Positions 1,066 to 56,798 of a DNA stretch of 64,000 bases are shown piece after piece. Made by a program: the position numbers and the translations under genes. Within the stretch, counting starts at the first letter, position 1; each line of letters opens with the position of its first letter. The stretch comes from a virus (lineage: Duplodnaviria > Caudoviricetes): positions 12,916-76,915 of IMG/VR virus record IMGVR_UViG_3300044829_000002; one strand, written 5' to 3'. The notes below the pieces were generated by a model. That model saw only the letters and a program-made list of their open reading frames with translations. It was not told the DNA's origin and made no database searches.

Positions 1066-1096
1066 AGCCGGTGTACAGAGGGTCTGTACACCGGCT
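1066..1096. terminator. 14-bp stem hairpin containing the GTACAG-N5-CTGTAC palindrome
   Basis: agccggtgtacaga-ggg-tctgtacaccggct followed by a T run on +; just after the ArdC-like gene stop. Confidence 0.6.
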
Positions 1097-1110
1097 TTTG
1101 GCGGGTCGGC

Positions 1111-1509
1111 TCAGATAGCTTGGTCAGTCTGCGAGATATCGAACACCGACACCAGGCGGAAGAATTTACGACCCGGCTTGGCGTCCTCGCCGGGTGTGCC
1201 GTCCAACTCGACAGTTCCGGGGGTGCCAGCGGCGGAACCGGCCGGTGCGAGAATACGCATTCCGTGCTCGCCCTTGCGGACCTGACGGCCGACTTCCTGC
1301 CAAGCCTTGAATCCGCGAACCTCAACGGCTCCGGGCATCTGCATGGCGATCAAGGCGGCGTTGCGCTCGCTGTACTTGTCGGCCATGAGGGTGAACGTGC
1401 CGTCCTCGGGGTCCATCTCGTCCATGAATGAGTCGAGACGGTTGCGCAGTGCGAGAACTTCGGCATTCTTGTCGGTGATGCTGCGGCGGGTGCGGGTCTG
1501 TGCGGTCAT
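1111..1509 (-). CDS. ArdC N-terminal (ssDNA-binding, DUF1738-like) antirestriction protein
   Basis: YSERNAALIAMQMPGAVEVRGFKAWQEVGRQVRKGEHGMRILAP...FRLVSVFDISQT is the ArdC-N signature. Confidence 0.8.
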   Translation of the reverse strand: MTAQTRTRRSITDKNAEVLALRNRLDSFMDEMDPEDGTFTLMADKYSERNAALIAMQMPGAVEVRGFKAWQEVGRQVRKGEHGMRILAPAGSAAGTPGTVELDGTPGEDAKPGRKFFRLVSVFDISQTDQAI

Positions 1510-1536
1510 TTCTGGCTCCTAGTGCTGCTCGGCGGG

Positions 1537-1589
1537 TGTCGTGCTAGATACGACAGTACGCCGCCGACTTCTGTACAGTCAAGCTGTAC
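1537..1589 (-). promoter_or_regulatory. promoter (TTGACT-18-TACTGT) with TGTCG-N9-CGACA (1537-1555) and GTACAG-N5-CTGTAC (1573-1589)
   Basis: both palindromes and sigma-70-like elements read directly upstream of the ArdC-like gene. Confidence 0.75.
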
Positions 1590-1618
1590 GGCAGACCGAG
1601 TTTCAGACGGCGCTCGAC

Positions 1619-2989
1619 TCAGGACAAGGCGAAATTACGCGGCTTGCCCGTGCGCTTCAAGACAGGCCGATCTCCCGTGTGCATCTGCCACCGACGGCAC
1701 GTCATATCCACGTATGCCGGACTGATATCCATGCCCAGCGTGAACCTGCCCGACAGGTGCCCAGCGATCACAGTTGACCCGCTGCCGACGAACGGGTCCA
1801 GCACGAGATCGCCAGGGTCGGTGAAGCTGGCGATGAACCAGCGCGGCAACTCGACCGGGAACGTTGCCGTGTGGCCCATCGTCTCGCTAGACCCGGCCGC
1901 GATGTGCAGCACGTTGGATGGCAGCGCAATACCGGACTCGGTCTGATGCGGCCCGAGCAGTCCTGACGGCCCAGCACTGCCGCTACCGGGGGTGATCGCC
2001 TGCTCACTCGGTTTCGCATTCGCTTCCGGGTCGAACTTGATCTTGTCGGATCGGGTGAAGTGCCAGACCGATTCCCACGCGTCCTTGAACATGCTCGGGT
2101 ATCTGCCAGGCACGCCGTTCTTGGTGTCAACCCAGCAGAACTCATCCACGAACCGCCAAGCCCATTCCCTCACGTGAGCTATCACAAGATCATGCACATA
2201 CAAGTCGCGCTGGCCGTTGTCGGCGTGAGCCTTGATATTGACCAGCCACGAGCCGTCGTCGGCCAGCGCGGCGGCGACGTTGGTCTGCACAGCTTCAAAC
2301 CACGCCACGTACTCGTCAGGTGGGATCGGCTTGAACCCGCTGTCCTCGTCGTACTTGCGTTGACGGGCGTAGGGCGGGCTTGTGATCGCCAGATTCACTT
2401 TCTCGCCGTCGAGCAGCTTGCCCACGTCGTCGGCGTTGCGCGAGTCACCGCACATCACGAGATTGTCACCTAGCCGCCAGATGTCACCCGGCCGGGTAAT
2501 CACCGTGACCGACGCCGGTGGCAACTCGTCCGGGTCCAGCGGCGGTTCACCGTCGAACGGGTCGGCGTCACCGATCATCGCGGCCAGCTCGTCCTCGGTG
2601 AACCCGAGATCATCGATCTCGTAATCGTCCAGCGCGCTCAACTCGGTCACCGCCTCGTGTAGCTGCCCGGTGTCCCATTCGGCTAGCTCGGCGGTTCGAT
2701 TGTCAATGATGCCGTAAGCGCGAGCCTGATCCATCGTGCCGTCGAATATCTTGACGTCCACGTACTCGACATCTTCGGCCACGCTCGCCGCCAGCCAGCC
2801 GCTCCCGGCGATCACGATCCCGTCCGGCAGGATCACGATGTTTTTCTGCTGGCCGAACAGCCTCAGCGATGCCCTGATCGCGTCCATGTTGCGAGGGGGA
2901 TGCAAACGTACGTTGCGAGGGTCAGCCAACAGGTCAGCTACCCGTCGTGCCTCTAGCTTCATCTGGGGGCGTCGCGTCTTAGGGGGCAT
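1619..2989 (-). CDS. ParB/Srx-like N-terminal domain fused to beta-class DNA methyltransferase (likely N4-cytosine); true start may be 2962
   Basis: N-terminal PRNVRLH...IRASLRLFGQQKNIVI; catalytic TSPPY; HTATFPVELPRWFI; VLDPFVGSGST SAM motif. Confidence 0.9.
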   Translation of the reverse strand: MPPKTRRPQMKLEARRVADLLADPRNVRLHPPRNMDAIRASLRLFGQQKNIVILPDGIVIAGSGWLAASVAEDVEYVDVKIFDGTMDQARAYGIIDNRTAELAEWDTGQLHEAVTELSALDDYEIDDLGFTEDELAAMIGDADPFDGEPPLDPDELPPASVTVITRPGDIWRLGDNLVMCGDSRNADDVGKLLDGEKVNLAITSPPYARQRKYDEDSGFKPIPPDEYVAWFEAVQTNVAAALADDGSWLVNIKAHADNGQRDLYVHDLVIAHVREWAWRFVDEFCWVDTKNGVPGRYPSMFKDAWESVWHFTRSDKIKFDPEANAKPSEQAITPGSGSAGPSGLLGPHQTESGIALPSNVLHIAAGSSETMGHTATFPVELPRWFIASFTDPGDLVLDPFVGSGSTVIAGHLSGRFTLGMDISPAYVDMTCRRWQMHTGDRPVLKRTGKPRNFALS

Positions 2990-3016
2990 CCTCGCATTGA
3001 ATCACCCGAGACATGA

Positions 3017-3050
3017 CTAAGCCCCGTACCGGGGGAGATACGGGGCTTAG
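3017..3050 (-). terminator. putative intrinsic terminator (12-bp stem)
   Basis: ctaagccccgta-N10-tacggggcttag just downstream of the DUF932 gene. Confidence 0.6.
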
Positions 3051-3062
3051 CCGATCGGGGGG

Positions 3063-4070: not shown

Positions 4071-4103
4071 GGTGACTCCCTCTCGGGGTGGCGTGCGACC
4101 CGG

Positions 4104-4148
4104 TGTCGCACTAGACACGACACTAGTCGCACCCTCTGACAAGAGTCA
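4104..4148 (-). promoter_or_regulatory. promoter TTGACT-18-TAGTGT, also TGTCAG-N10-TAGTGT, with operator 4104-4122
   Basis: read directly from the sequence upstream of the DUF932 gene. Confidence 0.75.
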
Positions 4149-4171
4149 ACATGCTAGCTCGCAACTACAGC

Positions 4172-4590: not shown

Positions 4591-4603
4591 GCACGTCCCC
4601 TTC

Positions 4604-4756: not shown

Positions 4757-4770
4757 AGCAATCCTCCCTT

Positions 4771-4808: not shown

Positions 4809-4877
4809 CCGTGCATCAACACATGCAGATGCCCGCCGGGATCGACGGGCATCTGTCTCGCGCAAGTCGGGCGTCTG

Positions 4878-6697: not shown

Positions 6698-7123
6698 CTC
6701 GTCTATCCCGACATCGTCAGGGATCTGCCACGCATCCCCGACGCGTTTCAGTACGTCCCCGATAGGCCGCTTGGGATGCTCAACTGGCGGCGGCGGCGCT
6801 TCACCGGCCGCAACCATGCCGCGTCGAGCTAGCAGCTCCGCTTTCCATGCCGGAAGATCATCCGGGTCCGCGTCAACCTGATCGGCCACCGTCCCGGCCG
6901 TCGTCAGTCGCGCCTCCCGAACTCGCTTGATCTCGGCGCGGATCTCAGCCGGTGAACAGAACGGCGACCGCTTGCAGATGCTCACCGCCGCCTCTGTGGC
7001 ATCCCTGAAATCGAGATCCGCCAGCAGTAGATGCCACGCGTCGGGCGTGTACTCCTCCATCTTCTGTTGCGGGCACGCCGCGTACACCAGCTCGGTCACG
7101 GTCAACGATTCCTCGGGAGTCAC
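6695..7123 (-). CDS. putative helicase loader/inhibitor (G39P-like)
   Basis: follows the replication initiator; DAWHLLLADLDFRDATEAAV...SPAEIR pattern typical of this gene position. Confidence 0.5.
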   Translation of the reverse strand: MTPEESLTVTELVYAACPQQKMEEYTPDAWHLLLADLDFRDATEAAVSICKRSPFCSPAEIRAEIKRVREARLTTAGTVADQVDADPDDLPAWKAELLARRGMVAAGEAPPPPVEHPKRPIGDVLKRVGDAWQIPDDVGIDE

Positions 7124-8007
7124 ACCAAAGCCTTTCTGTCGGAAGATGCCAGCATGTCTTGCGCGTCCCTGATCCGGGAACGGCGGCGGTTGATGATCGC
7201 GGCCTTGTCCGGCTGGCCGGGTCGGCGGGCGCGCAGTGCTTGCAAGCGCAGTTGCTCGTACTTGTCCCGCAACTTAGGCATCGATTGAATGTTGGCCCGC
7301 CAGAACTCGTCGTCCTGGCACCAGTCGATCGCTCGGTGTACTTGATCTTCGGTCCTGCCGTCGTTGTCGAGCATCAGCCGCGCCGCGTCCTGCCAGCGCT
7401 TGCCGATGGTTGGAGCCTTGGACCCGTTGCCGACGATGCGGTCCCGGAGGTGGGTGCACAGCCGGTTCACGTCCTGCCGGGTGGGAGCGACATCGGCTGA
7501 TGGTGGGTCCGGCGATTCGTCGCCGGACGTAAAGCTCTTTGTCTTTACCACCGTCTTGGTAGGAGGAACATTATGCGTATACGCGTCATGTACATTATCT
7601 GATTCCGCAGCACCATTATGCGCTTCCTGATCATGGGACAAACCTCCATCGCTTGCACCCAGGTCCACACCGGCGTCAGCCCATACGATCCGATAGCTCA
7701 GCGTGCGGTCCCACACACCGTCCTCCTGCTCGGTCAGTGCCTCGATGTGACCTAACGTCCTGAGTCGTGTGAGAATCCGCTGTATCTGCGCAACCTTAAA
7801 CCCGGTTTCGTTAGCCAACTCTTTTAGGTTGACCCGCCACCAGCCGTCGTGCACACCAGTGGCGGCGCACGGCCGATCAGGGTCCAGCCGGTAGGCAATA
7901 CGTGTCAGCACTAAAGCCCCGTTGCCGTAGCCGTCCAGGTCGCGGATCAACTGCGCTCTTACCTGCATGTAGTCGTGTGCGCCGATCGACGCTCGGTTGA
8001 TCATCAC
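7120..8007 (-). CDS. phage replication initiator protein
   Basis: N-terminal wHTH-like region; C-terminal WQDAARLMLDNDGRTEDQVHRAIDWCQDDEFWRANIQSMPKLRDKYEQL, typical of actinophage initiators. Confidence 0.75.
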   Translation of the reverse strand: MMINRASIGAHDYMQVRAQLIRDLDGYGNGALVLTRIAYRLDPDRPCAATGVHDGWWRVNLKELANETGFKVAQIQRILTRLRTLGHIEALTEQEDGVWDRTLSYRIVWADAGVDLGASDGGLSHDQEAHNGAAESDNVHDAYTHNVPPTKTVVKTKSFTSGDESPDPPSADVAPTRQDVNRLCTHLRDRIVGNGSKAPTIGKRWQDAARLMLDNDGRTEDQVHRAIDWCQDDEFWRANIQSMPKLRDKYEQLRLQALRARRPGQPDKAAIINRRRSRIRDAQDMLASSDRKALV

Positions 8008-8687
8008 GAACTCTTGTTCAGGTAGGGCTTAAACAGCGCTAACCATTGCCGTTCCAGAGTGAACGCTGCGGCCCTGTCCGCGCATTGGTGCGCTTGCCAG
8101 CGAGAGAATCGCTTACCCGAGTTTTGATGACTGCGCATTCGATCTACGAACTGTGCCGTGCTACCCACGTAGCACGGCACGTTGTCGGGGTCGTACAGCA
8201 AGTAAACGACAGGGACGCCACCTCTAGGACGCGGTGCTCCGGTCGGCAAAGGGTAGTCGCCCTGCCATGAGTCAGCGTCCTGGCCGTTGGGTACGAACAT
8301 TGCCGCGTACCGGAGCTGGTTCCCGCCAACCGGCATGTGCGCGTTCCAGCGTGTCGCGTGGCCGGTAACTGCGATGTGGCGATATTGCTCGTAGTGGTCG
8401 GCCAGATCCAAGATCCCGATCTTGCCAGCGTTAAACAGTCGGGCCAGCGCGAATAGATATTGTTCCTCGGCTTCGAGCTGTAATCCTTTGAGCTGGTCGC
8501 GCTTACGATTTAGGAACTCAATGTGTTGCAGTGACGCTGCACAGGCATCTACTGGCCCGTCATCGGCTGCGGTTGCTAGAGTGTGCACAGCTTCACCTAC
8601 CCCTACTAGGTCGGAGTTAGACGGCGGCAACCTGTCCCAAGGTTCCGCCGTCGTCTTACGTTCGGACCTAGAACGTAGCAGCCTCAC
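8004..8687 (-). CDS. GIY-YIG nuclease domain protein
   Basis: C-terminal VVYLLYD..NVPCYVGST...RMRSH...ERQWLALFKPYLN. Confidence 0.7.
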   Translation of the reverse strand: MRLLRSRSERKTTAEPWDRLPPSNSDLVGVGEAVHTLATAADDGPVDACAASLQHIEFLNRKRDQLKGLQLEAEEQYLFALARLFNAGKIGILDLADHYEQYRHIAVTGHATRWNAHMPVGGNQLRYAAMFVPNGQDADSWQGDYPLPTGAPRPRGGVPVVYLLYDPDNVPCYVGSTAQFVDRMRSHQNSGKRFSRWQAHQCADRAAAFTLERQWLALFKPYLNKSS

Positions 8688-9448: not shown

Positions 9449-10777
9449 CTACCCGAGTTTCGACGGATCGACCTTGATCGCCGCCATGATCTCTTCAATC
9501 GTGATGAACTTTGCCTCGACCCCGCCACCGGTGATCACGTCAACGGCGTCCATAGCGTGCTCGCCGTGTTTGTCGTTGAGTTGCTTGATCAACCCGCGCC
9601 GGATCTCCGAGTCTGGCTGCACCGTGCGAGCCTTCTCTGTGACCGGCTTGACCCTGTCGTTCAGGATCTCTCGCAGCTCGCGGATATTCACCTTGCGGAT
9701 CGGGATCTCCTCGCCGCCCATGCGCTCAGTCAGCACGTCCCGCGCCTTGTCGCCGAACTTCTCCACGAACGCGATCACCAGCCCGTGCCACACGTTGCTC
9801 GTCAGTTTCATGTCCGGCCGGTCACCGCTGTACTCGACCCCCTCATCGAATTTGGCGATGAACTCCTCGAACGTGCCAGGCTCGGCCTTGGGCTTGTCGG
9901 CTGACTTGCTCGGCTCGGGTTGCACGACGTCGGCTCGGGTGTGATCGTCGTCCGGCACGCTGGTCATCGTGTATGTCTGCGGCTCAGGTGTGCCGTCCAT
10001 CTGCTCCAACGCATCCGGGTCGAGATCCGTCCGCACAGTCTCGTCGCTGGCGATGCCCATTGCCAGTTGCGGGCTTGACGTCGGCGTGAACGACCACAGT
10101 CTGCGGACGGCTGTCTTGCGGCACATCGGCAGCTCAAATTTGCGCCACGGGTTGTCCGGCCCGCCGAATTTGTAGCCCGCCGAGTTGTCCCGTGCCTCCA
10201 GCGCGTCGTCATGGCCGATCGCCACCCAGCCGACGCCGGTAGAGCTGCGCGCAATGGCGTAGTGGATGATCGGCTCGCCACGCTTGCTGCGGTCCAAGAT
10301 CGGAATGTGATGCAAGCGCTCATCCAGGCCGAATTGAACCTCATGTTCCTCGTTGGAGAAAATCGTGCGCGCCGTGATCGTGACGCCAGAGCGGGCACCC
10401 AACTCGACCATTCCCCGATAACCGATGATCCATTGAGCCTCAGTGACGCGCTTTCGCTTGGACTCGTAAGGCAAAATCCAACCTTGCCCAAGAGAGGCCA
10501 CGTTGGGCCGCAGGTCGAGTTGCGCCGCTGTCATCAGCGCGCCGAGGAATGATTCCTGCGTGCATTCGATCAGCTTAGGCACGGTGCGAATGGCCGTGAT
10601 GCCGTCCCGGATGAGTCGCTTGGCCTCATGCTCACCCGGCATCGCATCCCGAAACGCCGGGAGCATCGCCTTGACCAGTTCGACCCGTTCGTCGGTTTTG
10701 CGTTTCAGCAGTCCAACCTCTTTATTTTGCGGAGCCGACATACCCACAGCAGCTCTCGCTCGATCCGTACCCGTCAT
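9449..10777 (-). CDS. recT: RecT-family ssDNA annealing protein with long C-terminal extension
   Basis: PKLIECTQESFLGALMTAAQLDLRP..LGQGWILPY...QWIIGYRGMVELGARSG; MCRKTAVRRL; downstream of YqaJ. Confidence 0.9.
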   Translation of the reverse strand: MTGTDRARAAVGMSAPQNKEVGLLKRKTDERVELVKAMLPAFRDAMPGEHEAKRLIRDGITAIRTVPKLIECTQESFLGALMTAAQLDLRPNVASLGQGWILPYESKRKRVTEAQWIIGYRGMVELGARSGVTITARTIFSNEEHEVQFGLDERLHHIPILDRSKRGEPIIHYAIARSSTGVGWVAIGHDDALEARDNSAGYKFGGPDNPWRKFELPMCRKTAVRRLWSFTPTSSPQLAMGIASDETVRTDLDPDALEQMDGTPEPQTYTMTSVPDDDHTRADVVQPEPSKSADKPKAEPGTFEEFIAKFDEGVEYSGDRPDMKLTSNVWHGLVIAFVEKFGDKARDVLTERMGGEEIPIRKVNIRELREILNDRVKPVTEKARTVQPDSEIRRGLIKQLNDKHGEHAMDAVDVITGGGVEAKFITIEEIMAAIKVDPSKLG

Positions 10778-11235
10778 TGTCTAGCCTCTCTCCGGTTGGC
10801 CTCGGTGATACTTTTGCACTTGCGACACTGCCTACGCGCTCGCCAGAGATAGACATTCTGCGGGTCGCCGAATGAATGTCCACGGATGCATTCGGCTTTA
10901 AGTGCGGGTCCGCTCCCTCGTCCTTTAGCGCGCATATCGGCGAGGTTGTCAGTCTGTGTATCTGCAAGCAGATGGTCATCAGCCCAGCAGTCAGGCACGT
11001 CGCAGCGGTGCATGATCACTGGCGTGCCTGATGGGATGGGGCCATGCCGTTCGATCCACGCGACGCGATGCACAAGTTCAGAGCAGTGATCATGATCCGT
11101 GCTGATCCTTCCGTAACCACGCTTATCGTGTTTGCCGGTAAAGATGAGACATGGCGTTTCGAGCGGGCCTGGCTCACCAAAAGATCTGTCGTAGAGCCGG
11201 TCAAGAATTAGGCGCGGCTTAACACCCCGCTTCAT
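10774..11235 (-). CDS. HNH homing endonuclease
   Basis: GYGRI...VHRVAW...IMHRCDVPDCW..DHL...TQTDN; CIRGH...CRKC. Confidence 0.85.
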   Translation of the reverse strand: MKRGVKPRLILDRLYDRSFGEPGPLETPCLIFTGKHDKRGYGRISTDHDHCSELVHRVAWIERHGPIPSGTPVIMHRCDVPDCWADDHLLADTQTDNLADMRAKGRGSGPALKAECIRGHSFGDPQNVYLWRARRQCRKCKSITEANRREARQ

Positions 11236-12305
11236 GAGTCCATGCCCTTCAAGTTCCAGCTACGCCGGTAGCGCAGGCCGGTCGGGAGTAAACCCGCATT
11301 GTCGGCCACCATCTTTTCCACGTCGATCTCGGTGACGTATCGCTCGACTCGATACCGCTCGGCCAGCTCGGCGTTGGCCTTGACCCAGCCCTTGTTCGTA
11401 CCGTCTATCACTCGTGATGCCCGCCACGTTGCGGCCAGCGTCCGGTCGGGCCATAACAGCTCCGTGCTTTCGCCGACCTGTGCTTGCAAATTGGCTTCGT
11501 CGTCAGCCAGTCGGGCTTTGAGTAGGTCGAGCACGCGCTTGCGGTTACGGATACGGTGCATCAGGTCGGCTTGCGAGCCGGTCAGCATGTGCTCTCGGCC
11601 TCGTTCGGGTTGCCCGTATTGCTGTTTGATGCCCTCGGCCGCTCGTCGGGTCGCGGTCGGCGGCACGTCCATGATCACATGCCGTCCCCAGAACTTGGCC
11701 GCAATCAACGCCATGTTGATCATGAGTTCCTCGTCGCGTTGCATCACGCGGTGAATGCTGCGATGCCGCGAGCCGTCCACCACGAAATGCACGTGATCCC
11801 GGCCTGTCGCGAATAGCTGCCATTGACCTTGGAACTGGAACGGCACCGGGATCTCCGGCGCGGTCAGATCGTCGCCCCACTCACGGTCATCGATCTGAGT
11901 CTTGGCCTCGATGATGCACCGGCCAGCGGGACACACGGACAGCCGGTCCAGGGTTGCCCCGGCGCGCTTGTACCGCTTGGATTGGATCAACCCGGCGCGG
12001 CGGATCTTGATCGGGAAGTCTGCGTAGCGGTTGAGCCAGTGCTGAATCGCCGCGTCCTCGTAGTCGAGCCCGTACGCCTGCTGGTCGTTGGTGTAGTCGA
12101 TGGAGCGGCCCGTCTTGTCGAGCCACACCGTGTACGCGTCGCCGTAGGTGGACACGCCCAGCAACGCGGCCATGTCGCTCGCGCACATCATGTTCTGTCG
12201 CAGATCCAGCCATGTGCCTCGGTGCTCGGTAACTGAGGATGCCGGAAGGATCTGGCGACCGTGTGGCAGTTGCCAGGGATGGTCGGGTAGTTGCGGTGCG
12301 CTCAT
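11232..12305 (-). CDS. YqaJ-like (lambda-exonuclease/RecE-type) recombination nuclease
   Basis: WLDLRQNMMCASDMAALLGVSTY...VWLDKTG; ATLDRL..IIEAKT; QGQWQLFATG; RBS GAGAGG. Confidence 0.9.
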   Translation of the reverse strand: MSAPQLPDHPWQLPHGRQILPASSVTEHRGTWLDLRQNMMCASDMAALLGVSTYGDAYTVWLDKTGRSIDYTNDQQAYGLDYEDAAIQHWLNRYADFPIKIRRAGLIQSKRYKRAGATLDRLSVCPAGRCIIEAKTQIDDREWGDDLTAPEIPVPFQFQGQWQLFATGRDHVHFVVDGSRHRSIHRVMQRDEELMINMALIAAKFWGRHVIMDVPPTATRRAAEGIKQQYGQPERGREHMLTGSQADLMHRIRNRKRVLDLLKARLADDEANLQAQVGESTELLWPDRTLAATWRASRVIDGTNKGWVKANAELAERYRVERYVTEIDVEKMVADNAGLLPTGLRYRRSWNLKGMDS

Positions 12306-18471: not shown

Positions 18472-21400
18472 TTAACGCCTCGGTCCTTTGATCGCATTCA
18501 CGTTCTGCTTCGCGCTCACCAGTCGCGCCAGTCCGTCGGTGTCAATCTGAATACCCATACCGGCTAGCGAGCGAGAGAACGACCTGACCAGCGACTCCTC
18601 CGTGATCACACTGCCACTGCCTGCCGAGCGCGGAGTGCTGCGTATCTGCTCCGCTGGCCCCGCTGGGATGATCATTTCGCCCTTGTGAACATATGCCATT
18701 TCCGTCTTCGGGATCGACCAAGCGCCTGTCTTGTAGCCCGACACTGGCGGATCGATTGCAAAGATCGAGCCGTACCGGGACCTGATATACCGAATACCTG
18801 CGGCGATGTTGGCTATCGGGTCGTTGATGTTCAGGCTCGTGCCCGGCAAGTGATAGGCGGCAAAGGTTGAGGGAATCGTCTGCATCAGACCTTGTGACGG
18901 GTGACCGGCCGCAGCGTTCGAGTCGGTGAGGTTGATCGCGTTCGGGTTACCCCCGGACTCGTAAGAGATCCGGCGCAACAATGGAGCGAACCAAGTACCT
19001 GGAGTGCCGGTCAGTTGAAGCGCCGCCTGCACCCACTGGCCGAGCGACCCGCTCGCCTTAACGAGCATCGAAGAAATATCCGGCCCGCCGATAGACAGAG
19101 CCCCGCCTGCCTGCTTAGCCCACCGGCCGAGGAACGCGGTCGCGCCACCGGCCTTGTTGACGATGCCCTTCAAGATCCCGGACATGATGTGTTTACCGGC
19201 GTCGATAGCCCACGACGGAGGCGACTTGATGCCGAGCGCACCGAGGATTTTCTTCGGCAGCGACCCGAACCAATTCTTGATGTTGTTCCACACAGACTTG
19301 ATGCCATCCCACAAGTGATTCATGATCGCCGCGCCACGAGCTTCCAGGAACCCCATGCCGCCAGCGATCAGCCCCGCGATACCTCGGCCTAAGCGACCGA
19401 ACCACTGGCCGATGCCGCGCCACGTCGCGGTGATGCCGTTCCACAGCGCGTTGAGCAACCGCTGACCAGCGTTGGTCAGATACACCGCGCCTGCCGTGAT
19501 GAGGCTGCCGATAGCTCGACCGAGATTCCCGAACCATTGACCGACTCCGCGCCAGATTGCTGTTATGCCGTTCCATAAACCTTGGATCAAGCGCTGTCCG
19601 GCGTTGAGCAGCCATGACGCGGCGGCGGCGAAGAACCCGATGATTTTCCCGCCCATAGACGAGAGGAAGTTCAGCACAGCCTGCGAGGCGTTGATGATGG
19701 CATTTTTGATTGTGTTCCAATGGCTGATGATGAACAGCACCAGTAAAGCGATCGGCCCCATGATCACCGCAACTATCAGCCTCCAGTGATCCTTGACGAA
19801 TGACCACACAGCGGTGAATATTTTCTTCGTCCAAGCCAGGATCGTGTTCCACTTCCAGATAATTAAGGCGACCAAGGCTATGACTCCGGCGATGACCCAA
19901 GCCACCGGACCCATAGCTATCACCCATGCCAGAGCGATACGCGCCGCCTGAATCAATGACTGAGTGCCCAACACGATCCATGCGCCGACCTGTACAGCAA
20001 CCGACGCTATAGCCCCGGCGGCGGCTGTGACCCAGCCAGCGGCGATGACAGCCGCTCCAGCCACAGCTCGCGCCGCCGATGCTGCCCAACCGGCGATCAT
20101 CGCGGCGAACGCTGCCGCCTGCGAAACGACCGTGTCGCCAGCGGCGGCACGCAACATGAACCAACCGATAACCTGCCGCCCTGCCGACACGAGTGCCGCC
20201 GCGCCGGTGCTGATCCAGCCGCCGATGATCACCGCGAACGCAATAGCGGATGCAGCCGCCGCCCGGTACGCACCACCCTGCGCGATCAGCCACGCGACTG
20301 ACGAGCGGACCGCATTCACCATCGCCTCCGTGCCGTACAGCACCCAGAGAGCGATAGATTCCCCGAGACTGATAGCTGTGGTCACACCGAGGCTCACAAT
20401 CGCAGGCAAGAGAACAGCGGTGATCACTCCGGCGAAAATGGCGAACGTCGTGCGGTGAGAATCAAAGAAATTGATGATCCCAGTAAGAGCGTCGGCGTAG
20501 ATCCGTATGGCGTTGACCGTGATCAGCAGCGCTGCGCCGATGATCTGCGCAGCGACCTGAAATACCTTGCTGATCGTGGGCCAGTTGGTTTGCAGCCAAT
20601 GAAAGATCGGTATAAGGATCTTGTTCCACCATGTGCTGAGGTAGTCACCGATAGCCTGGATCGCCGGGACGACATTCGCTTTCAACCGATCGAACACGCC
20701 CTTCATTGCGTCCAGATTGCCGGGTGTCAGCAGGCTCTTGCGAACGAACGCGAACGCGTCACCAACCGCATGCCCGAACGTACCCAGAGCAGGGATCACG
20801 TCACGGAGAATGATGTCAGCCGCGTCGGACAGCACCGGTAAAAGCTTCGTGCCGACCGCGATACCGGCCGTGATCACGACCTGTTTCAGTTGGCTCATCT
20901 TCTGGTTGAAGGTGGTCTGTTTGATCTCCCAGTCCTTGACGTTGCCGCCCGCTTCCGCTTGAGCGGATGAGATTGCTTTCACACTGGACTGGAACGTTTT
21001 CATGTTCTCGCCAGTCAAGTGCAGCGCCACTTGCAGCCCGGTCTGCCCGCCGGTCATTTTCGCCAACGCCGCCACGTATGTCAGCGCCGACGGCGAACCC
21101 GATTTCAGTAGATCGGAGAACCCGTGAGCACGGCTGTAGGACACCAGCCATTGCCGCGCCAGGTTGGCCTGCTCGAACGTCATCGAGCCGATGGACTTGC
21201 GATATTCATGGATCGAAAGCGTGCCGTCAGTGAGGCCCTTGGCTAGCTTCTGGACAGGCGCGGGCAGATTCTTGAACATTTCGTTTGCTTTACCGGCAGC
21301 GATAGTTGACGTATTCATCGCGTTAGTGATCGTCAAACCAGCCGGACCCATATGGTCAGTGATCGCCTTGGTGATCATCTGTAACGTGCCGGTCAAGCCG

Positions 21401-22266
21401 CGCTGACCTAAATGCTGAGCCACGTCTGTAGATGACAGGCCGAACGCTGCCATAGCTTTCGTTTCCTGCGCCGTCGGGTTAGCCAGTGACAGGATCGCGT
21501 GGTTCAGGTTTTGTGTCGCCTGCTGTGCGCTGATGCCCTGCGCTGTCATGGTGGCAATAGCGGCTGTCGTCTGCGCAAATGAGATCCCTATAGCCGCAGC
21601 GTTGGGCAGCACTGAGTGCAGGGATGAGGCCAGGTCGTCCATCGTCATCTTGCCCCGGCCGACGGCGGCAACCAGTTGGCTCATGACCGTTGCAGGCGGG
21701 CCAGCCTTGCTACCGAGATCGACCAGCGCGGTTGTCAACGCGTTGGCTACCACTCCTGTATCGGCCATGTCCACCTTGGCACCCTGCGCCGCCGCCTTCA
21801 TGACGTCGAGCGCTTTCTGTCCGTGGAACCCGGCAGACTCGATCATGTACATGCCGCTAGCAAGTTGCGTGGTTGACGTGCCGGTGTCGCGTGCCAGTTT
21901 CAGAACGCCGTCGCTGACCATTTTCAGTGATCCGGCTTGCTCACCGGCAGCCGTTACCAGCCGTGTCATCTGCGTCTGGAATGTCCCGGCCAGCTTGACA
22001 ACCTCGACACCGACACCGGTAAAGATCGCGGCAGGGATAAGAGACTTGCCGATCAGCGCGGTTTTGAACTTCGAGACGAACCCTTCACCACCGCGTCTGC
22101 CTGACGCTGCCGCACCGGCCGCTGCGCCGGTACCTAACTGCTCGCCGCCTGCCCGTGCGGCTGGCACTGCGCCGCGAAACCCGGCTGTGACACCCGCACG
22201 TGTCGCCGCAGAGAATGCCCGGAAGTCGGGCAAAATTTCGACATACGCGCGGTCAATAATTGTCAC
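18472..22266 (-). CDS. tape measure protein with C-terminal SLT lytic transglycosylase domain
   Basis: 1264 aa, Ala/Gly-rich, TP901-like core; ISYESGGNPNAINLTDSNA..GHPSQGLMQTIPSTF...DPIANIAAGIRYI. Confidence 0.95.
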   Translation of the reverse strand: MTIIDRAYVEILPDFRAFSAATRAGVTAGFRGAVPAARAGGEQLGTGAAAGAAASGRRGGEGFVSKFKTALIGKSLIPAAIFTGVGVEVVKLAGTFQTQMTRLVTAAGEQAGSLKMVSDGVLKLARDTGTSTTQLASGMYMIESAGFHGQKALDVMKAAAQGAKVDMADTGVVANALTTALVDLGSKAGPPATVMSQLVAAVGRGKMTMDDLASSLHSVLPNAAAIGISFAQTTAAIATMTAQGISAQQATQNLNHAILSLANPTAQETKAMAAFGLSSTDVAQHLGQRGLTGTLQMITKAITDHMGPAGLTITNAMNTSTIAAGKANEMFKNLPAPVQKLAKGLTDGTLSIHEYRKSIGSMTFEQANLARQWLVSYSRAHGFSDLLKSGSPSALTYVAALAKMTGGQTGLQVALHLTGENMKTFQSSVKAISSAQAEAGGNVKDWEIKQTTFNQKMSQLKQVVITAGIAVGTKLLPVLSDAADIILRDVIPALGTFGHAVGDAFAFVRKSLLTPGNLDAMKGVFDRLKANVVPAIQAIGDYLSTWWNKILIPIFHWLQTNWPTISKVFQVAAQIIGAALLITVNAIRIYADALTGIINFFDSHRTTFAIFAGVITAVLLPAIVSLGVTTAISLGESIALWVLYGTEAMVNAVRSSVAWLIAQGGAYRAAAASAIAFAVIIGGWISTGAAALVSAGRQVIGWFMLRAAAGDTVVSQAAAFAAMIAGWAASAARAVAGAAVIAAGWVTAAAGAIASVAVQVGAWIVLGTQSLIQAARIALAWVIAMGPVAWVIAGVIALVALIIWKWNTILAWTKKIFTAVWSFVKDHWRLIVAVIMGPIALLVLFIISHWNTIKNAIINASQAVLNFLSSMGGKIIGFFAAAASWLLNAGQRLIQGLWNGITAIWRGVGQWFGNLGRAIGSLITAGAVYLTNAGQRLLNALWNGITATWRGIGQWFGRLGRGIAGLIAGGMGFLEARGAAIMNHLWDGIKSVWNNIKNWFGSLPKKILGALGIKSPPSWAIDAGKHIMSGILKGIVNKAGGATAFLGRWAKQAGGALSIGGPDISSMLVKASGSLGQWVQAALQLTGTPGTWFAPLLRRISYESGGNPNAINLTDSNAAAGHPSQGLMQTIPSTFAAYHLPGTSLNINDPIANIAAGIRYIRSRYGSIFAIDPPVSGYKTGAWSIPKTEMAYVHKGEMIIPAGPAEQIRSTPRSAGSGSVITEESLVRSFSRSLAGMGIQIDTDGLARLVSAKQNVNAIKGPRR

Positions 22267-23079: not shown

Positions 23080-23131
23080 CGTCGCACTGACTACGACACG
23101 GGAGCACGGTAGCTGTACAGCCAGACTGTAC
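23080..23131 (-). promoter_or_regulatory. CGTCG-N9-CGACA (23080-23098) plus GTACAG-N5-CTGTAC (23115-23131)
   Basis: both palindromes lie in the ~200 bp gap upstream of the tail chaperone. Confidence 0.65.
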
Positions 23132-23176: not shown

Positions 23177-23626
23177 TTACCCAAACATCGCTGGTAGCGC
23201 GTCGCGCAGAAACGGCGTACCCCTCATGCCACGCGTCGAGCGCACAAAAACAGTCTTCCGATTTTTGCGTGCGATCAGCGGACCGCCAGGAGCGCTCACG
23301 CGTGGCGTGAACACGAGCACCCGTGCATTCTTGGGATAGATGCGTGCATGGCGCGGACCGTACAAGCCTGTTCCATCGTGGACCCACATGGCGTACTTCA
23401 CATCGGTGCCGACCTCGCACACCAGGCCGCGCTCCGTGATCACCAGTGCCGCGTGAATCGAAGACCGCAGCCGCCCGTGATCAACGGGGCATTTCAACTT
23501 CGCCGCCGCCTCAACCTTGAGACCTCGCCGCAGCAAATCACGAGCCACCCCACCGCGCGGGTCACGCAGCATCCGCGCCACCGCCGCCACGTCTAGCTGA
23601 TGTCGGATGCGAGGTACCGGACTCAT
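23177..23626 (-). CDS. HK97 gp10-like tail completion/neck protein
   Basis: AKLKCPVDHGRLRSSI...VGTDVKYAMWVHDGT...GTPFLRDAL. Confidence 0.8.
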   Translation of the reverse strand: MSPVPRIRHQLDVAAVARMLRDPRGGVARDLLRRGLKVEAAAKLKCPVDHGRLRSSIHAALVITERGLVCEVGTDVKYAMWVHDGTGLYGPRHARIYPKNARVLVFTPRVSAPGGPLIARKNRKTVFVRSTRGMRGTPFLRDALPAMFG

Positions 23627-24144
23627 CGCTGCATCGCCACCGTGAAGTTGACCTGAGTGCCGACGCATGCACCTTCGGGGCCGACAGGAACCATCTGGTT
23701 CACGATGTACTCCACGATCTGATCCGCCAGCACCAGTTCGGCCAGTTTGCAGCACGTGGCCGTCAACACCAACCATGCGTCACCCATGATCTGCTGAGCC
23801 GACGTGTCCAGTGCTGTCACGCTCGGCCCTTTACCTTGTGCGTCAACCGTCGGCGCGCACCGGATCAACTGGACAGTGAACTCCGATGCGAGAAACGCGC
23901 CCTGGCAGCTCGACTGTGGCGCGGTGGACTGAGTCGGGAAATCATCGGTGTAGTAGGTGCGCGCCAATGAGACCACCAACAGGCCGCACTGCTCGCAGCC
24001 GTCCCACGCGATAGCGCCAGGCACAACCCCGGACCGTCCGTTCCTCGCATCCCACACGCCCGCTGCCGCGAGATCCGACACGATCCGGGCCAGCACTGCC
24101 GACGCCACCGTGTAGGACGCGCCAGCGCCAGTCAGAAGCGTCAT
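23623..24144 (-). CDS. tail terminator-like protein (cluster-B-like)
   Basis: IAWDGC..CGLL; VQLIRCAP; GPEGACVG; position in the neck module. Confidence 0.55.
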   Translation of the reverse strand: MTLLTGAGASYTVASAVLARIVSDLAAAGVWDARNGRSGVVPGAIAWDGCEQCGLLVVSLARTYYTDDFPTQSTAPQSSCQGAFLASEFTVQLIRCAPTVDAQGKGPSVTALDTSAQQIMGDAWLVLTATCCKLAELVLADQIVEYIVNQMVPVGPEGACVGTQVNFTVAMQR

Positions 24145-38078: not shown

Positions 38079-39893
38079 TCACCGCACGACCGGACTCAGC
38101 GTCGGCAGCATGTTCACTACCGCCGCGTCGGTCATGCGCGTACCGATGCGGGGTGAGCCGTCCGGTGCGAGATAGCACTGGTAGGCACCGGGGCTGCCGG
38201 GTCGAGCTTTGATGAAGTCACCCCAGGTGCCGGTGTTCACCGGGCATTGGAACAGGTGAGCCTGGCATTCAGCCGGGTGCAGCAGCTCGTACCCGCCGTT
38301 GCTCAACGGGGAGATACGGATTGCGTGCGGCAGTCGTGCCTGCTTCAAGAGTTGGACGGTGTGTGCTTCGCTGCCTGGTCCAGGCTTGCCGTCAGGTGGC
38401 GGGACAGGCTGTTCGGGTGGCGTATTGGTCGGTGACGGCTCCGGCTCTGCACCTGAAACGGCCGGTGCGTCCGTCGGGATCGTTCGCGTAGTGCCGATCG
38501 GTACCTCGACGTAGACGCCGGTCAGTTCCTTCAACGCGGCGAACGCGGTGGCCGGGTCTGTGGAGAGTTTCAGCAGGATCATCCTGATCAGCTCGTCGTT
38601 GGACGGCTTGTCATCCTCATCGAACCCGATCTCGCGCCGCAACGCTTCACCGGATATTTCGCCCAGGCCGTAGGCGGTGACCGCCTTGTCGGAACGGTCG
38701 GGGCGGATGGTGATTTCGCTCGCGTCGTACCAGACGACGATGTCCTCGATGCTTTCTCCGGCCGCGAGGAGACGCGGATGGAGGTAGCCCTCGGTCAACG
38801 CCTGGCAGATCAGTTCCGTGTCGGGTGCCAGGTATCGCTTGAATGATGTTTCCTCGATCAGCCAGCCGGACCAATGGTTGATGTCGGCCATGCCGAGCAG
38901 TGATTCCGGGGGGACGTCCAAGTCCATTGCTAGCCGCTTGTCGGCAGCCTCCCGCTTCTCGATGATCTTCTGATCGAGTTTCATCGTGAAATCGATGTGT
39001 TGCACCTTGTCCACGTATTCCGCCGCGATGCGGATCGGCATGGGCACCACGGCCGACGCTGAGCCGGGGGTGCTGATCGCTTCCGCCGCGATCTCGATCC
39101 ATTCGGCGACGAACGGGTCGGCCGCGTCCTGGAATTCTTCTCGCACAGGGAAGGTGACTTCGTTCGGCAGTACGAGCAGGCCCGCCGATGCGATGCGGGA
39201 AAGATACTGGCTGACGATGTGCCGGTTCGCCAGCTCAAGCTCGCGCATGGTGGATCGTGCGGCGCGTGCTGAGGAGTCGGCGATGTGGAAGAACCGCTTG
39301 TGGGGTCGCCACACCCGGACCACGAGGGATTCAGCGGACAGGGACCGCCAGCGGATGGTGTTGCCCGCCGACCGCTCATCCACTACCTGATACGGCGACA
39401 CCGCATTCTCAGCCGTTCCGTAGCGACTGGCGGCGGTCGGCCGATACCGGACCTCGTCGGTGGAGCGGGCGGTCCACACGTTCCGCCCGTCGGCCAGGGT
39501 CTCTCCGATGATGAATCCTTCACCGGGGACCGAGAGATACACGGCGAGGTTGGACATGATGCCGGATTGGGCACCGGCTGATAGTTCGGAGATCAGGTCA
39601 GCGGCGGGGCCGACGTCGAGAATGGTCGGCTCGTCTTGACCGGCGTCCTTTTTCGCGGCACGGAGCCGAACGCGGGACAGCATGTCCGCTTTCCACATGA
39701 CGGCGTTGCGGAACATGCCGAGCGAATCCCAGTAGCCCCACGCTTCCCGCTGCCATTCCTGCTCATCGGGTAGCAGTTTGGAACGGTATGGGTCGGTGGC
39801 TGATTGCTGGCTGACGATGGTCGCGGCAGCTACTAGTCCGGCAGACGACTGTTTCGGTGTGGGCGCGAGCCAGGACAGCAGCCTTAGTGCCAT
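38079..39893 (-). CDS. portal protein
   Basis: EWQREAWGYWD..VRVWRPH..ADSSARA..RLAMDLDVPPESLLGMADINHWSGW; position. Confidence 0.85.
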   Translation of the reverse strand: MALRLLSWLAPTPKQSSAGLVAAATIVSQQSATDPYRSKLLPDEQEWQREAWGYWDSLGMFRNAVMWKADMLSRVRLRAAKKDAGQDEPTILDVGPAADLISELSAGAQSGIMSNLAVYLSVPGEGFIIGETLADGRNVWTARSTDEVRYRPTAASRYGTAENAVSPYQVVDERSAGNTIRWRSLSAESLVVRVWRPHKRFFHIADSSARAARSTMRELELANRHIVSQYLSRIASAGLLVLPNEVTFPVREEFQDAADPFVAEWIEIAAEAISTPGSASAVVPMPIRIAAEYVDKVQHIDFTMKLDQKIIEKREAADKRLAMDLDVPPESLLGMADINHWSGWLIEETSFKRYLAPDTELICQALTEGYLHPRLLAAGESIEDIVVWYDASEITIRPDRSDKAVTAYGLGEISGEALRREIGFDEDDKPSNDELIRMILLKLSTDPATAFAALKELTGVYVEVPIGTTRTIPTDAPAVSGAEPEPSPTNTPPEQPVPPPDGKPGPGSEAHTVQLLKQARLPHAIRISPLSNGGYELLHPAECQAHLFQCPVNTGTWGDFIKARPGSPGAYQCYLAPDGSPRIGTRMTDAAVVNMLPTLSPVVR

Positions 39894-39970
39894 TGCCGCG
39901 CCTCCCAAACGTTACGGTTTGTAGCGCAGCATATCTACCGGGAGTCGATTTTGCCGCGTCGTCTTCGCGG

Positions 39971-53210: not shown

Positions 53211-53230
53211 GATGCAATTCCTTTCCTAGA

Positions 53231-54125: not shown

Positions 54126-54316
54126 GACGCCGCCTTTATTGCGTGTGCCCGTCGTGTATTCCGCTGCTGCTCACTAGCTGTTGCCCAGCGAACGTTACCT
54201 GGCTCGTAGTTACCGTCGTTATTGATCCGGTCGAGCGCGGGTGTCGGCGGTATCCTCGTTAAACTCAACACAACCCAGCGGTCAAATCGGTCGCCGGGTT
54301 CAACCACAAGCGGCAT
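54122..54316 (-). pseudogene. internally deleted HNH homing endonuclease remnant (64 aa)
   Basis: N-terminal GDRFDRWVVL joined almost directly to C-terminal LDRINNDGNYEPGNVRWATASEQQRN. Confidence 0.65.
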
Positions 54317-55025
54317 TGATTGCCTCCTGTAATCGTGCTGCATCCTTGACCCGTTGGGGTGCCAGATCTCGGTAGAGTTGGTCAACATTGTCTTGCACGT
54401 GTCGAGCCAGCCGATCTTGATGAGTCTGATCCCACTCACCTTTACCTGCAATCGGGTGCATGTGTTCGATGTACACCTCAGGCAGATACACCCGACGCTG
54501 AATCATATCTGCCATAGTGCTTAAGTAAGTGTCGTTGTAATCTGACGAGAAATATGGCGGCATGAAGTAGCCCAGCGCATTAACCCATTGCCGACTGTAG
54601 AACCCGAGCGTTGCCATACCTGCGTTCATGATGCCGTCCCGGCCGTGCACGCAGGCGATGCCGTCAGGGAAGCGGCGGAACCCTTCCCGGATCTCCATGT
54701 CCCAGCGCATGGATCGGAAGATCACATCATCGTTTCCGTGCCAAAGTATCTGGCCGGTGGCGAGTTTGTAACACTCGTTCCACGTCTGAGACAACAGGAT
54801 GCGCGGACCCAGCGCTGCGCGATAGTTGTCAGGCAGATCGTCGGCGCGAGCCGGACGCATCATTGTGTCGTCATCCTCGTCCACGTAGATAATCAGTTCC
54901 AGCAGCTCCGGGTGTACAGCGGTGCCGCGAGCTGAGTCCCACATGAGTTTGAGCTGGCCCGGTCGGCCGCGGGACGGCACTAGCAGGCTGATCTTCCAGT
55001 GCCAGTCGTCCCATTCAGGATTCAC
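54300..55025 (-). CDS. glycosyltransferase family 2
   Basis: ISLLVPSRGRP..YVDEDDD..GNDDVIF..YFSSDYNDT..IEHMHP. Confidence 0.85.
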   Translation of the reverse strand: MNPEWDDWHWKISLLVPSRGRPGQLKLMWDSARGTAVHPELLELIIYVDEDDDTMMRPARADDLPDNYRAALGPRILLSQTWNECYKLATGQILWHGNDDVIFRSMRWDMEIREGFRRFPDGIACVHGRDGIMNAGMATLGFYSRQWVNALGYFMPPYFSSDYNDTYLSTMADMIQRRVYLPEVYIEHMHPIAGKGEWDQTHQDRLARHVQDNVDQLYRDLAPQRVKDAARLQEAINAACG

Positions 55026-55168
55026 TTGATCGTCCTCGTCAATGTCCGGCGTACGCCGTGCTGTATGGCATCGTGCTCCAACGCTCGGCGGCAGCGCGGG
55101 CACCGGGCATCATGGCCGTTCTTTACCCGGCCGATGTCCTCGTGACACTCCGGGCATGCAAGCCTCAT
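55022..55168 (-). CDS. small zinc-ribbon protein
   Basis: MRLACPEC...CPRC. Confidence 0.55.
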   Translation of the reverse strand: MRLACPECHEDIGRVKNGHDARCPRCRRALEHDAIQHGVRRTLTRTIK

Positions 55169-55410
55169 TGCATGCTCCCCGGCAGGATCAGGCCGGTCTT
55201 GGCCCGTGTGCTGGCACCGGAGATCAACTGTGCTAGCTGCGGCGCGTCCTCGCCGTTCAGGAACGTGACGAACTTCCCGGTGCATGTGGTGATAGTGATC
55301 ATCACCCACGCGGACCCGTCCGGGCCTGCCACGGGGTCCACCCGCCAGTTGGTCTGGGTCGGCTGCACCGGTATCTCATTCGACGGCACAGCGCCGTTAG
55401 GTGCGGTCAC
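55165..55410 (-). CDS. hypothetical protein
   Basis: overlap pattern with neighbours. Confidence 0.55.
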   Translation of the reverse strand: MTAPNGAVPSNEIPVQPTQTNWRVDPVAGPDGSAWVMITITTCTGKFVTFLNGEDAPQLAQLISGASTRAKTGLILPGSMQ

Positions 55411-55574
55411 TGGCGGTCGCTCATGGTCGGCACGCTGATGAACGACGCGGCCCAGAAAGCCAGCCCGAGATACAGGTAGCTCAGCGGGTGATCGTTGACG
55501 GTTGGTGCGTCAACCGCGAATGCGGCGAGCAGGAAGCTGATGACAGCGGCTAGGAGTAGCACGAATCGGAGCAT
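55407..55574 (-). CDS. small membrane protein (55 aa; not in the ORF track)
   Basis: MLRFVLLLAAVISFLLAAF...YLGLAFWAASFI; RBS AAAGGA. Confidence 0.6.
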   Translation of the reverse strand: MLRFVLLLAAVISFLLAAFAVDAPTVNDHPLSYLYLGLAFWAASFISVPTMSDRQ

Positions 55575-55603
55575 GATCGGTTCCTTTCAGAGAGAGAGGG
55601 GGC

Positions 55604-55879
55604 TTACGGTCTTAATGGTCGCGGTGTTACTCGGCGGTATATCACCAGAGTCTCGGGGGTGCAGTCGGCGAACACCACCGTCCCGTCCTCAGTGCGAGCC
55701 ACAACCCAGTCGGCACCCATCGCCTCCACCCGCTTGGGTGAGTAGGAATCTCTGCCGAACCATCCGCCGCAATAGGCGTCCGGCTCGTCGCCTTGATGTG
55801 CTTGGCCGAGCCAGTCACCGACCCGCAGCGGCGGCTGGATCTGCGCGTTCACTTGGACCGTGGCAATTGCTTCACCCAT
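55604..55879 (-). CDS. hypothetical protein
   Basis: GGWFGRDSY..KRVEAMGADWVVAR motif; RBS. Confidence 0.65.
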   Translation of the reverse strand: MGEAIATVQVNAQIQPPLRVGDWLGQAHQGDEPDAYCGGWFGRDSYSPKRVEAMGADWVVARTEDGTVVFADCTPETLVIYRRVTPRPLRP

Positions 55880-55892
55880 GATCAGTTGCCTT

Positions 55893-56672
55893 TCATGACA
55901 CGGTGCGGATCAGCCAGAAATCGTCGGACAGGTCAGGGTTGGTCAGGTACGCGAGCGGCATCCAGTAATACCCGTTCTCACCCCAGTGCGGACCCCACGA
56001 GTTGCGGACCCGGATGAGCGGCTGACCGCCGAGCATGACATAGCCGACGGCGACAACAGCGTGCCCGCCTAGCAGCCGTTCACCGGCACCGGGCAGCGGC
56101 ACCAGCCCGCCAGCTTGCATCGGGAAGGACTCGTACACGCTGAACCCGAATATCACCGGGTGGCCGTCGGCAATGGCTCGCCTGATCCCCGAACGGCGAA
56201 CCTTGGCGTAGGAGTTGGCCTTGGTTTCACCGGCGAGCGCGTAGGCGTGACTGTTCGGCTTGATAGCGAATGAGCCGATGTCGTACGGCCAGGCGTGTTC
56301 GGGCGGCGCGCCGATCTTGTGCATGACCTTGATGCCGTCCCGAATGTAGGCCCCGGCATCCTCTCCGATGCTGTGCTCCATCCACCGCTCGTAGTAGTAG
56401 ATGAACAGTCGGGAGGGTGTGAAGTCCGGTTCCGGCTGGCGGTTCAGGTCGAACTCGACCACTGCGGCGATCGCGTTGGCGGTACAGCTTCCGAGCGCGC
56501 CTTGGTCGTAGCACTCCGGCATGGCCGGGTCGAGATCAAGTCGGGTCTCCGGTGGCAGCTTGCGTCGGCTGGCCTTGTAGGGCACGTCACGGATATCGGG
56601 GAGATCGGGTCGCCAGCCGAACCGCTCACCGCTCGGTCCCTGCTCGGGTCGAATCCGCAGATCGGATGCCAT
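55893..56672 (-). CDS. papain-family (C1) cysteine protease
   Basis: DQGALGSCTANA (Gln, Cys); SRLFIYY; GGHAVVAVGY (His); VRNSWG..WGENGY (Asn). Confidence 0.9.
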   Translation of the reverse strand: MASDLRIRPEQGPSGERFGWRPDLPDIRDVPYKASRRKLPPETRLDLDPAMPECYDQGALGSCTANAIAAVVEFDLNRQPEPDFTPSRLFIYYYERWMEHSIGEDAGAYIRDGIKVMHKIGAPPEHAWPYDIGSFAIKPNSHAYALAGETKANSYAKVRRSGIRRAIADGHPVIFGFSVYESFPMQAGGLVPLPGAGERLLGGHAVVAVGYVMLGGQPLIRVRNSWGPHWGENGYYWMPLAYLTNPDLSDDFWLIRTVS

Positions 56673-56746
56673 GCGCGCACGATATCCCGACAGGTATGAC
56701 TAACTCACTCACGATCACTCTCGGGGGGTCGATCTGGCAGCCGAGC

Positions 56747-56798
56747 GTACAGCGTTGCTGTACAGCAGATGAGTTACCGTGTCGCATCCAGTACGACA
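56747..56798 (+). promoter_or_regulatory. GTACAG-N5-CTGTAC (56747-56763) plus TGTCG-N9-CGACA (56780-56798), mirror orientation
   Basis: intergenic, between terminase and protease genes. Confidence 0.65.

Follow-up and report, generated by a model that had tools for sequence, protein, structure and literature searches.

The subject of this analysis is a 17-bp palindrome, GTACAG-N5-CTGTAC (here M2), in a 64,000-nucleotide stretch of viral DNA (Caudoviricetes). The stretch, referred to below as the window, comprises bases 12916-76915 of a 76,915-bp IMG/VR virus record (IMGVR_UViG_3300044829_000002); coordinates are those of the window unless "genome" is stated, and "upstream" and "downstream" are relative to the minus strand, which is the coding strand. 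Exact copies of M2 lie at 1073-1089, 1573-1589, 23115-23131 and 56747-56763, as an earlier note on this DNA had reported, and each stands beside a second palindrome, known from that note as TGTCG-N9-CGACA and described more fully by the consensus TGTCGYRC-N3-GYRCGACA (M1). A fifth pair, in which M2 carries one mismatch, lies 1.6 kb outside the window. The five pairs, modules A to E, are composed as follows.

1573..1589, minus strand: M2 copy A (GTACAGCTTGACTGTAC, coding strand), between the ParB-DNA methylase and ArdC-N-like genes.
1537..1555, minus strand: M1 of A (TGTCGTATCTAGCACGACA), separated by 17 bp from M2 and by 27 nt from the ATG at 1509, which lies downstream.
1553..1582, minus strand: predicted promoter of A, read from the sequence, with -35 TTGACT at 1582-1577, an 18-nt spacer and -10 TACTGT at 1558-1553.
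1073..1089, minus strand: M2 copy B (GTACAGACCCTCTGTAC), flanked by the ArdC-N-like gene and the gene of an 87-aa helix-turn-helix (HTH) protein, inside a 13-14 bp hairpin at 1066-1096.
1033..1051, minus strand: M1 of B (TGTCGTACTCAGCACGACA), 21 bp from M2, with a -10-like TAATGT at 1054-1049.
23115..23131, minus strand: M2 copy C (GTACAGTCTGGCTGTAC, then AG), between the HK97-gp10-like tail-completion gene and the open reading frames (ORFs) that precede the tape measure gene.
23080..23098, minus strand: M1-like site of C (TGTCGTAGTCAGTGCGACG), 16 bp from M2, overlapping a candidate GTG start at 23087 and without a TA-fused -10.
56747..56763, minus strand: M2 copy D (GTACAGCAACGCTGTAC, coding strand), in the 135-bp gap from the large terminase gene to the papain-like peptidase gene; flipped, with M2 downstream of M1.
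56780..56798, minus strand: M1 of D (TGTCGTACTGGATGCGACA), 16 bp from M2, starting 9 nt past the terminase stop codon and without a TA-fused -10.
Genome 11308-11324: M2 of module E, with one mismatch (GTAAAG-N5-CTGTAC, plus strand), flipped like D.
Genome 11341-11359: M1-like site of E (CGTCGTGCTGAGTGCGACG), 16 bp from M2.

M2 is a real, statistically secure, non-random element. No exact copy was found across 100 dinucleotide-preserving shuffles (approximately zero expected), and the whole 76,915-bp genome contains the same four exact copies and no more. A scan of the genome with one mismatch allowed adds only the copy of module E, against 0.05 expected. With two and three mismatches the counts (20 and 1 observed vs 24 and 2.5 expected) are at chance level and all of these matches are unpaired, while at zero or one mismatch the genome contains no unpaired M2. 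All five copies are intergenic in a genome of which approximately 10% is non-coding (P ~1e-5). Moreover, a census of palindromes in the genome (6-nt arms in at least three copies, or 5-nt arms in at least five) returned only M2 and M1. The hexamers GTACAG and CTGTAC are frequent within genes (33 and 20 copies), the full dyad being restricted to the modules. The exhaustive scan proposed in the earlier note thus did not bring up the many unpaired intragenic copies that it had named as speaking against the element. A chance origin of M2 was rejected on the shuffles, the mismatch counts and the statistics of pairing and intergenic location. Separately, TGTACA and GTACAG are over-represented approximately two-fold genome-wide; this abundance is plausibly a codon-pair effect, with CTG-TAC favoured on the coding strand.

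The pairing of M2 with M1 is equally exclusive. The genome has eight exact TGTCG-N9-CGACA sites and, when up to two mismatches to the longer consensus are allowed, approximately 16 sites. An M1-like site adjoins each of the five M2 copies; that five copies should fall within reach of some 16 such sites by chance has P ~2e-9. The converse does not hold, as M1 often stands alone and only 5 of the ~16 M1 sites are accompanied by M2. The edge-to-edge gaps are 17 bp in A, 21 bp in B and 16 bp in C, D and E, corresponding to centre-to-centre distances of 35, 39, 34, 34 and 34 bp. The gaps of 21, 17, 16 and 16 bp listed in the earlier note, and its statement that the two palindromes always occur together, are borne out, with the correction that the partner at 23080-23098 is inexact, having one mismatch in its outer arms (CGTCG..CGACA on the plus strand).

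Each pair forms an oriented unit. When the modules are written with M2 at the left, A, C, D and E read GTACAG-N5-CTGTAC-AG-N14/15-M1, and B reads ...CTGTAC-AC-N19-M1. The AG extension turns the M1-proximal half of M2 into an 8-bp palindrome, CTGTACAG, which gives the module its polarity. Since this extension faces M1, and flips along with M1 in D and E, the unit is defined on the DNA relative to M1 and not to transcription. Relative to transcription, M2 is upstream of M1 in A, B and C and the order is flipped in D and E. Thus, the placement of M2 on the promoter-upstream side in the earlier note is right for the copies at 1573, 1073 and 23115 and wrong for that at 56747, which is downstream of M1. 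It may be added that CTGTACAG occurs eight times in the genome against approximately one expected, four times in modules and four times within genes (18200, 19990, 27996 and 53782).

Conservation is confined to the arms. The arms of M2 are invariant in the four exact copies, E has its one degenerate base in the arm away from M1, and the five 5-bp centres are all different. Pairwise local alignments of the flanks (+/-90 bp) score at most 38, no higher than the motifs alone. Invariant arms together with divergent centres and flanks point to selection acting on the arms, as would be expected for a dimer contacting two half-sites. A recent duplication of the modules was rejected, there being no shared flanking homology.

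The relation to promoters is clearest for M1. The dinucleotide TA (frequency 0.02) directly precedes 8 of the 16 M1 sites (P ~3e-10), and with the first 3 nt of M1 it forms TAnTGT or TAnCGT, which agrees with the -10 pattern of actinobacteria, TANNNT. A start codon follows the end of M1 after 8-33 nt, and at most sites a Shine-Dalgarno sequence lies within this interval. The TA-fused -10 and the short distance to the start suggest that M1 is centred at approximately +1 of short-leader promoters. In module A, the -35-like TTGACT lies in the centre and right arm of M2, and the -10-like hexamer 18 nt further on shares the first 3 nt of M1. The same layout, TTGACT-18-TAGTGT, is found at an M1 site that has no M2 (4104-4122). 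In module B, TGTACA in the right arm of M2 (1077-1072) is separated by 17 nt from TAATGT, the latter again running into the first 3 nt of M1. The overlap of M2 with the -35 region at these two sites, put forward in the earlier note, is therefore a reasonable reading of the hexamers.

The modules lie in a genome of ~62% G+C, with direct terminal repeats of 127 bp on the 76,915-bp record and ~120 genes which, by third-position G+C and ORF length, are essentially all on the minus strand. In gene order, the main landmarks are as follows.

Start of the gene order, minus strand: small genes without known function, including a WhiB-like gene at 60903-61319.
56808-58238, minus strand: large terminase.
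55893-56672, minus strand: papain-like peptidase.
38079-39908, minus strand: portal, followed by connector and tail genes.
23177-23776, minus strand: HK97-gp10-like tail-completion gene.
18472-22266, minus strand: tape measure, followed by a glycosyltransferase gene and then a RecE/YqaJ-RecT pair.
7120-8007, minus strand: O-like/DnaD-like replication protein (HTH_36/O-like), followed by DUF932.
1619-2989, minus strand: ParB-DNA methylase.
1111-1509, minus strand: ArdC-N-like protein (anti-restriction).
746-1009, minus strand: 87-aa HTH protein P0121, followed by an HNH gene.

Beyond the window end, small genes occupy another 12.9 kb. The best named relatives of the terminase, of which the top match is 37.5% identical, infect Streptomyces, Gordonia, Microbacterium and Arthrobacter, and its metagenomic relatives come mostly from soil-type samples; the host is likely to be a soil actinobacterium. 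The WhiB-like transcription factor gene (PHROG E = 2e-5, with Pfam just under the cut-off), which is among the first genes of the genome, supports an actinobacterial host. Free-standing nuclease genes are present in the non-structural arm: two of HNH_3 type (273-821 and 10774-11235), one GIY-YIG (8004-8687) and a weak HNH (genome 9542-9898). The phage appears to be lytic.

Several local features of the modules should be noted. M2 copies A and B bracket the ArdC-N-like gene and are exactly 500 bp apart, and this gene looks like a self-contained promoter-gene-terminator cassette. Module E is located upstream of an ASCH-domain gene (genome 10813-11268), in a non-coding gap of 313 bp that also has a decayed M1-like stretch, TGCATTCAGCACGCC, at genome ~11416-11434. 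The start of the peptidase gene, 75 nt beyond module D, has no Shine-Dalgarno sequence and reads TATCGT-N6-ATG (56672-56690, minus strand), a geometry that would suit a leaderless-type actinobacterial transcript.

In our opinion, the best explanation, which we hold to be somewhat favoured on balance, is that M2 is a putative double-stranded-DNA operator of a dimeric sequence-specific protein and acts only together with M1. In common with operators, it has dyad symmetry, conserved arms, a non-conserved centre and an occurrence at several loci (four exact copies and one with a single mismatch). The M2-binding protein would most likely be phage-encoded, and M2 and M1 would make up an oriented composite site of 34-39 bp, centre to centre. 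In modules A and B, around the ArdC-N-like gene, sigmaA-type promoters would have M1 at their -10/+1 and M2 at their -35; binding to M2 would give some of the M1-controlled promoters a second control layer, the favoured sign at A and B being repression by blocking of the -35. At the promoter-less modules C, D and E, two of which are flipped, the same protein-DNA complex might work independently of orientation, as a roadblock or insulator between transcription units or as a looping anchor. The two-factor switch of the earlier note, with one protein at the -35 and another at the -10/+1, is retained here for A and B, i.e., two of the five modules; it leaves the three promoter-less modules, including the two flipped ones, unexplained. 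Its further proposal of control over the 3' end of the terminase gene would need an antisense promoter, and no credible one was found: inspection by eye of flipped modules D and E gave no convincing -35/-10 in antisense.

As to the protein itself, Pfam and PHROGs searches with ~70 small or non-structural proteins gave no CI/Cro-type repressor and no integrase. Directly downstream of module B, where an autoregulated regulator would usually be placed, is the gene of P0121 (87 aa), a protein with a C-terminal sigma-70-region-4 / HTH_23-like helix-turn-helix (...SWQEIAGPLGVTRSAAAQRFSRR). The Pfam matches are sub-threshold, and the neighbours of the protein in the structure Atlas are sigma-70 family and region-4 clusters. 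Its AlphaFold model is of low confidence (mean pLDDT 53). P0121 is a candidate M2-binding protein, yet unproven, and should be taken as a lead and not as evidence. It has only two homologues (P0123 and P0124; 61-64% identity) among 5.8 billion clustered proteins, none in IMG/VR and none in five distant relatives. The first 18 residues of P0121 and these two homologues are near-invariant (MFEPxEIRRWERQLxAML). Other possible DNA binders are the WhiB-like protein (60903-61319), a phage zinc-finger protein (genome 9279-9557) and the HTH_36/O-like replication protein.

A number of observations weigh against M2 as an operator. A strict scan for an E. coli-type sigma-70 consensus lists no promoter at any of the four sites in the window. 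Three of the five modules are without a recognisable promoter: in C, D and E, M1 is not fused to a TANNNT, and neither orientation shows a convincing promoter. The distance between M2 and M1 varies (34, 35 and 39 bp), so that helical phasing is not strictly kept. Pfam found no canonical repressor in the genome and picked out no binding protein, and the searches brought up no related genome with the motif. Finally, copy B is within a very stable hairpin that could be a terminator.

A first alternative, to which we give a rather small probability, is that M1 and M2 are one site for a single factor or hetero-oligomer, with M2 as an auxiliary affinity element; there would then be one switch and not two. 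This would account for the facts that M2 is never without M1 while M1 is often alone, that the spacing hardly varies (three of the five modules have 16 bp) and that the module behaves as a single oriented, flippable unit. It also has a precedent in the second repeat found on a subset of the first in the SAS/ESAS repeats of Cluster K phages (PMC3203893). Against it, the half-sites differ in both sequence and geometry, M2 being ACA-N7-TGT (everted) and M1 TGT-N13-ACA, and the spacing stretches to 17 bp in A and 21 bp in B. The sequence is compatible both with two different proteins and with one complex at M2-M1.

It is less plausible still, and in our view unlikely, that M2 functions at the RNA level, where a short hairpin would terminate, pause or process read-through transcripts, M1 being the promoter or operator of the next unit in a terminator-promoter punctuation. 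The location of M2 in A, B, C and D, 21-45 nt past the stop codon of the upstream gene, is suggestive of such a role, and a palindrome folds alike in both orientations, which is compatible with the flipped modules D and E. Moreover, the stem at B, which has M2 as its core, is 13-14 bp long (-25.4 kcal/mol, z = -8.6), and CUCCUUCAU comes after it. However, the stems at A, C and D are weak (6-7 bp, -7.9 to -9.7 kcal/mol) and no better than those of shuffled sequence. A terminator scan found no terminator-like site at the four loci of the window, and there is no T-run at any of them, including the stable B; Rfam 15 gave no match at gathering score, either in the window or in the 13 kb of the genome outside it. 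A structural hairpin need not hold the sequence of its arms, and typical RNA-protein recognition would show the opposite of invariant stems with variable loops. It is M1 that the AG extension follows, not the direction of transcription, and M2 comes after M1, not before it, in D and E. Invariant stems, free loops and a polarity that follows M1 point instead to a symmetric protein that recognises double-stranded DNA, i.e., to M2 as an operator; the hairpin of B may additionally terminate the single-gene ArdC-N unit.

A more elaborate form of the operator explanation is doubtful, and we consider it improbable. According to it, the M2-M1 pair would be an orientation-independent module that switches the promoter of the anti-restriction cassette and elsewhere, between the packaging, tail and accessory blocks, acts as a roadblock or an anchor for loops; P0121, being sigma-region-4-like, would read the -35-like TGTACA and partition the transcription units in place of intrinsic terminators. 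The weakest alternative, which appears very improbable, takes the modules as DNA landmarks apart from transcription, either recombination or exchange boundaries or targets of the HNH or GIY-YIG endonucleases encoded at 273-821, 10774-11235 and 8004-8687: the modules do lie at boundaries of functional blocks (methylase / ArdC-N / HTH-HNH; tail-completion / tape-measure block; terminase / peptidase), but there is no flanking homology and there are no duplicated cassette ends, the central spacers (5 and 3 bp) are short, unlike tyrosine-recombinase cores, no recombinase is among the proteins screened, and M1 is tied to -10-like hexamers and to start codons at 8-33 nt beyond it, which points to gene expression.

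If M2 is indeed an operator, the genome would carry a two-layer control code of a soil actinophage, in which ~16 promoter-proximal M1 sites are present and five of them are marked by M2. The M2 layer could then time the expression of counter-defence (the ArdC-N-like protein) apart from that of other M1-controlled genes. The five modules, of ~55 bp each, make a compact probe set for regulators in a phage group whose small genes are nearly all uncharacterised.

Relatives sharing the elements were sought widely. The composite M2-N(12-26)-M1 had no match in IMG/VR, in the JGI metagenome contigs or in 596 Gb of prokaryote genomes (185,579 genomes). For M2 with the AG extension alone, only scattered single chance matches were present among the IMG/VR matches listed. 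A megablast search against GenBank phages found nothing. The terminase relatives compared in IMG/VR and metagenomes (at most 53% identity) have neither M1 nor M2, and the 20-kb loci of terminase relatives, together with three whole relatives, contain no clear analogue of M2 or M1 among G+C-rich chance palindromes. Closer terminases, P0001-P0005, are found in the protein database (55-64% identical); the closest relatives of the ParB-methylase are 39% identical. Two distant relatives have repeated palindromes of their own: AGGACA-N7-TGTCCT occurs three times within 1 kb in G005 (the record of L029, ~66189-67150), and AGTGTTC-N5-GAACACT occurs three to four times in L163:2221-5914. These may be lineage-specific operators.

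Among known systems, the SOS boxes bound by LexA are CTGT-N8-ACAG in the E. coli type and TCGAAC-N4-GTTCGA in actinobacteria. M2 resembles them in its CTGT/ACAG tetranucleotides and dyad symmetry. It was rejected as a LexA site, since the arms are everted (ACAG-N5-CTGT and not CTGT-N8-ACAG) and neither box is matched. A closer analogy is offered by the 17-bp operators of lambda, P22 and 434, which overlap the -35 and -10/+1 and serve one repressor family as tandem operators of the same type, in one or two control regions of a temperate phage. M2 likewise is a 17-bp dyad with conserved arms and a non-conserved centre, and it overlaps predicted promoter hexamers at two modules. Unlike these operators, it is paired with a different palindrome and the pairs are dispersed over an apparently lytic, one-strand genome, with no integrase or CI-like repressor among the screened proteins.

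Dispersed palindromes are also known from mycobacteriophages. Those of Cluster O carry a single motif, the 17-bp palindrome TGTTCGG-N3-CCGAACA, in at least 34 copies (Cresawn et al. 2015; PMC4351075). In common with it, M2 is a dispersed 17-bp dyad of an actinobacteriophage with invariant arms and a variable centre, located mostly between genes or at gene 5' ends and presumably bound by a protein. It differs in copy number (4-5), in sequence, in its 6-5-6 geometry of arms and spacer and in the obligatory second-palindrome partner; moreover, the Cluster O motif is not among the palindromes of this genome, the census of which gave only M1 and M2.

The Cluster K mycobacteriophages come closest in organization. 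Some of their genes are directly preceded by the SAS repeat, of which there are 11-19 copies, and ESAS inverted repeats are found only beside approximately half of these copies (Pope et al. 2011; PMC3203893). The SAS sequence, GGGATAGGAGCCC, is an asymmetric 13-mer which is located 3-8 bp upstream of start codons, includes the ribosome-binding region, has almost always the same orientation and is thought to act in translation, and ESAS has imperfect arms of 17 nt separated by 4-13 bp (PMC3203893). The present system is similarly two-tiered, with ~16 M1 sites 8-33 nt upstream of start codons and M2 at five of them. Here, however, each of the two elements is a short perfect palindrome, the association of M1 is with -10-like hexamers and not with the ribosome-binding site, and the M2-M1 module is found in both orientations. 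There is no sequence similarity: the SAS and ESAS sequences are absent from this genome, and only the two-tier logic is held in common. No general concept is therefore changed by M2 and M1, as dispersed operator-like palindromes and two-tier repeats are already known in actinobacteriophages; the M2-M1 pair represents a known kind of element, new in its sequence and in its arrangement and described from one uncultured genome.

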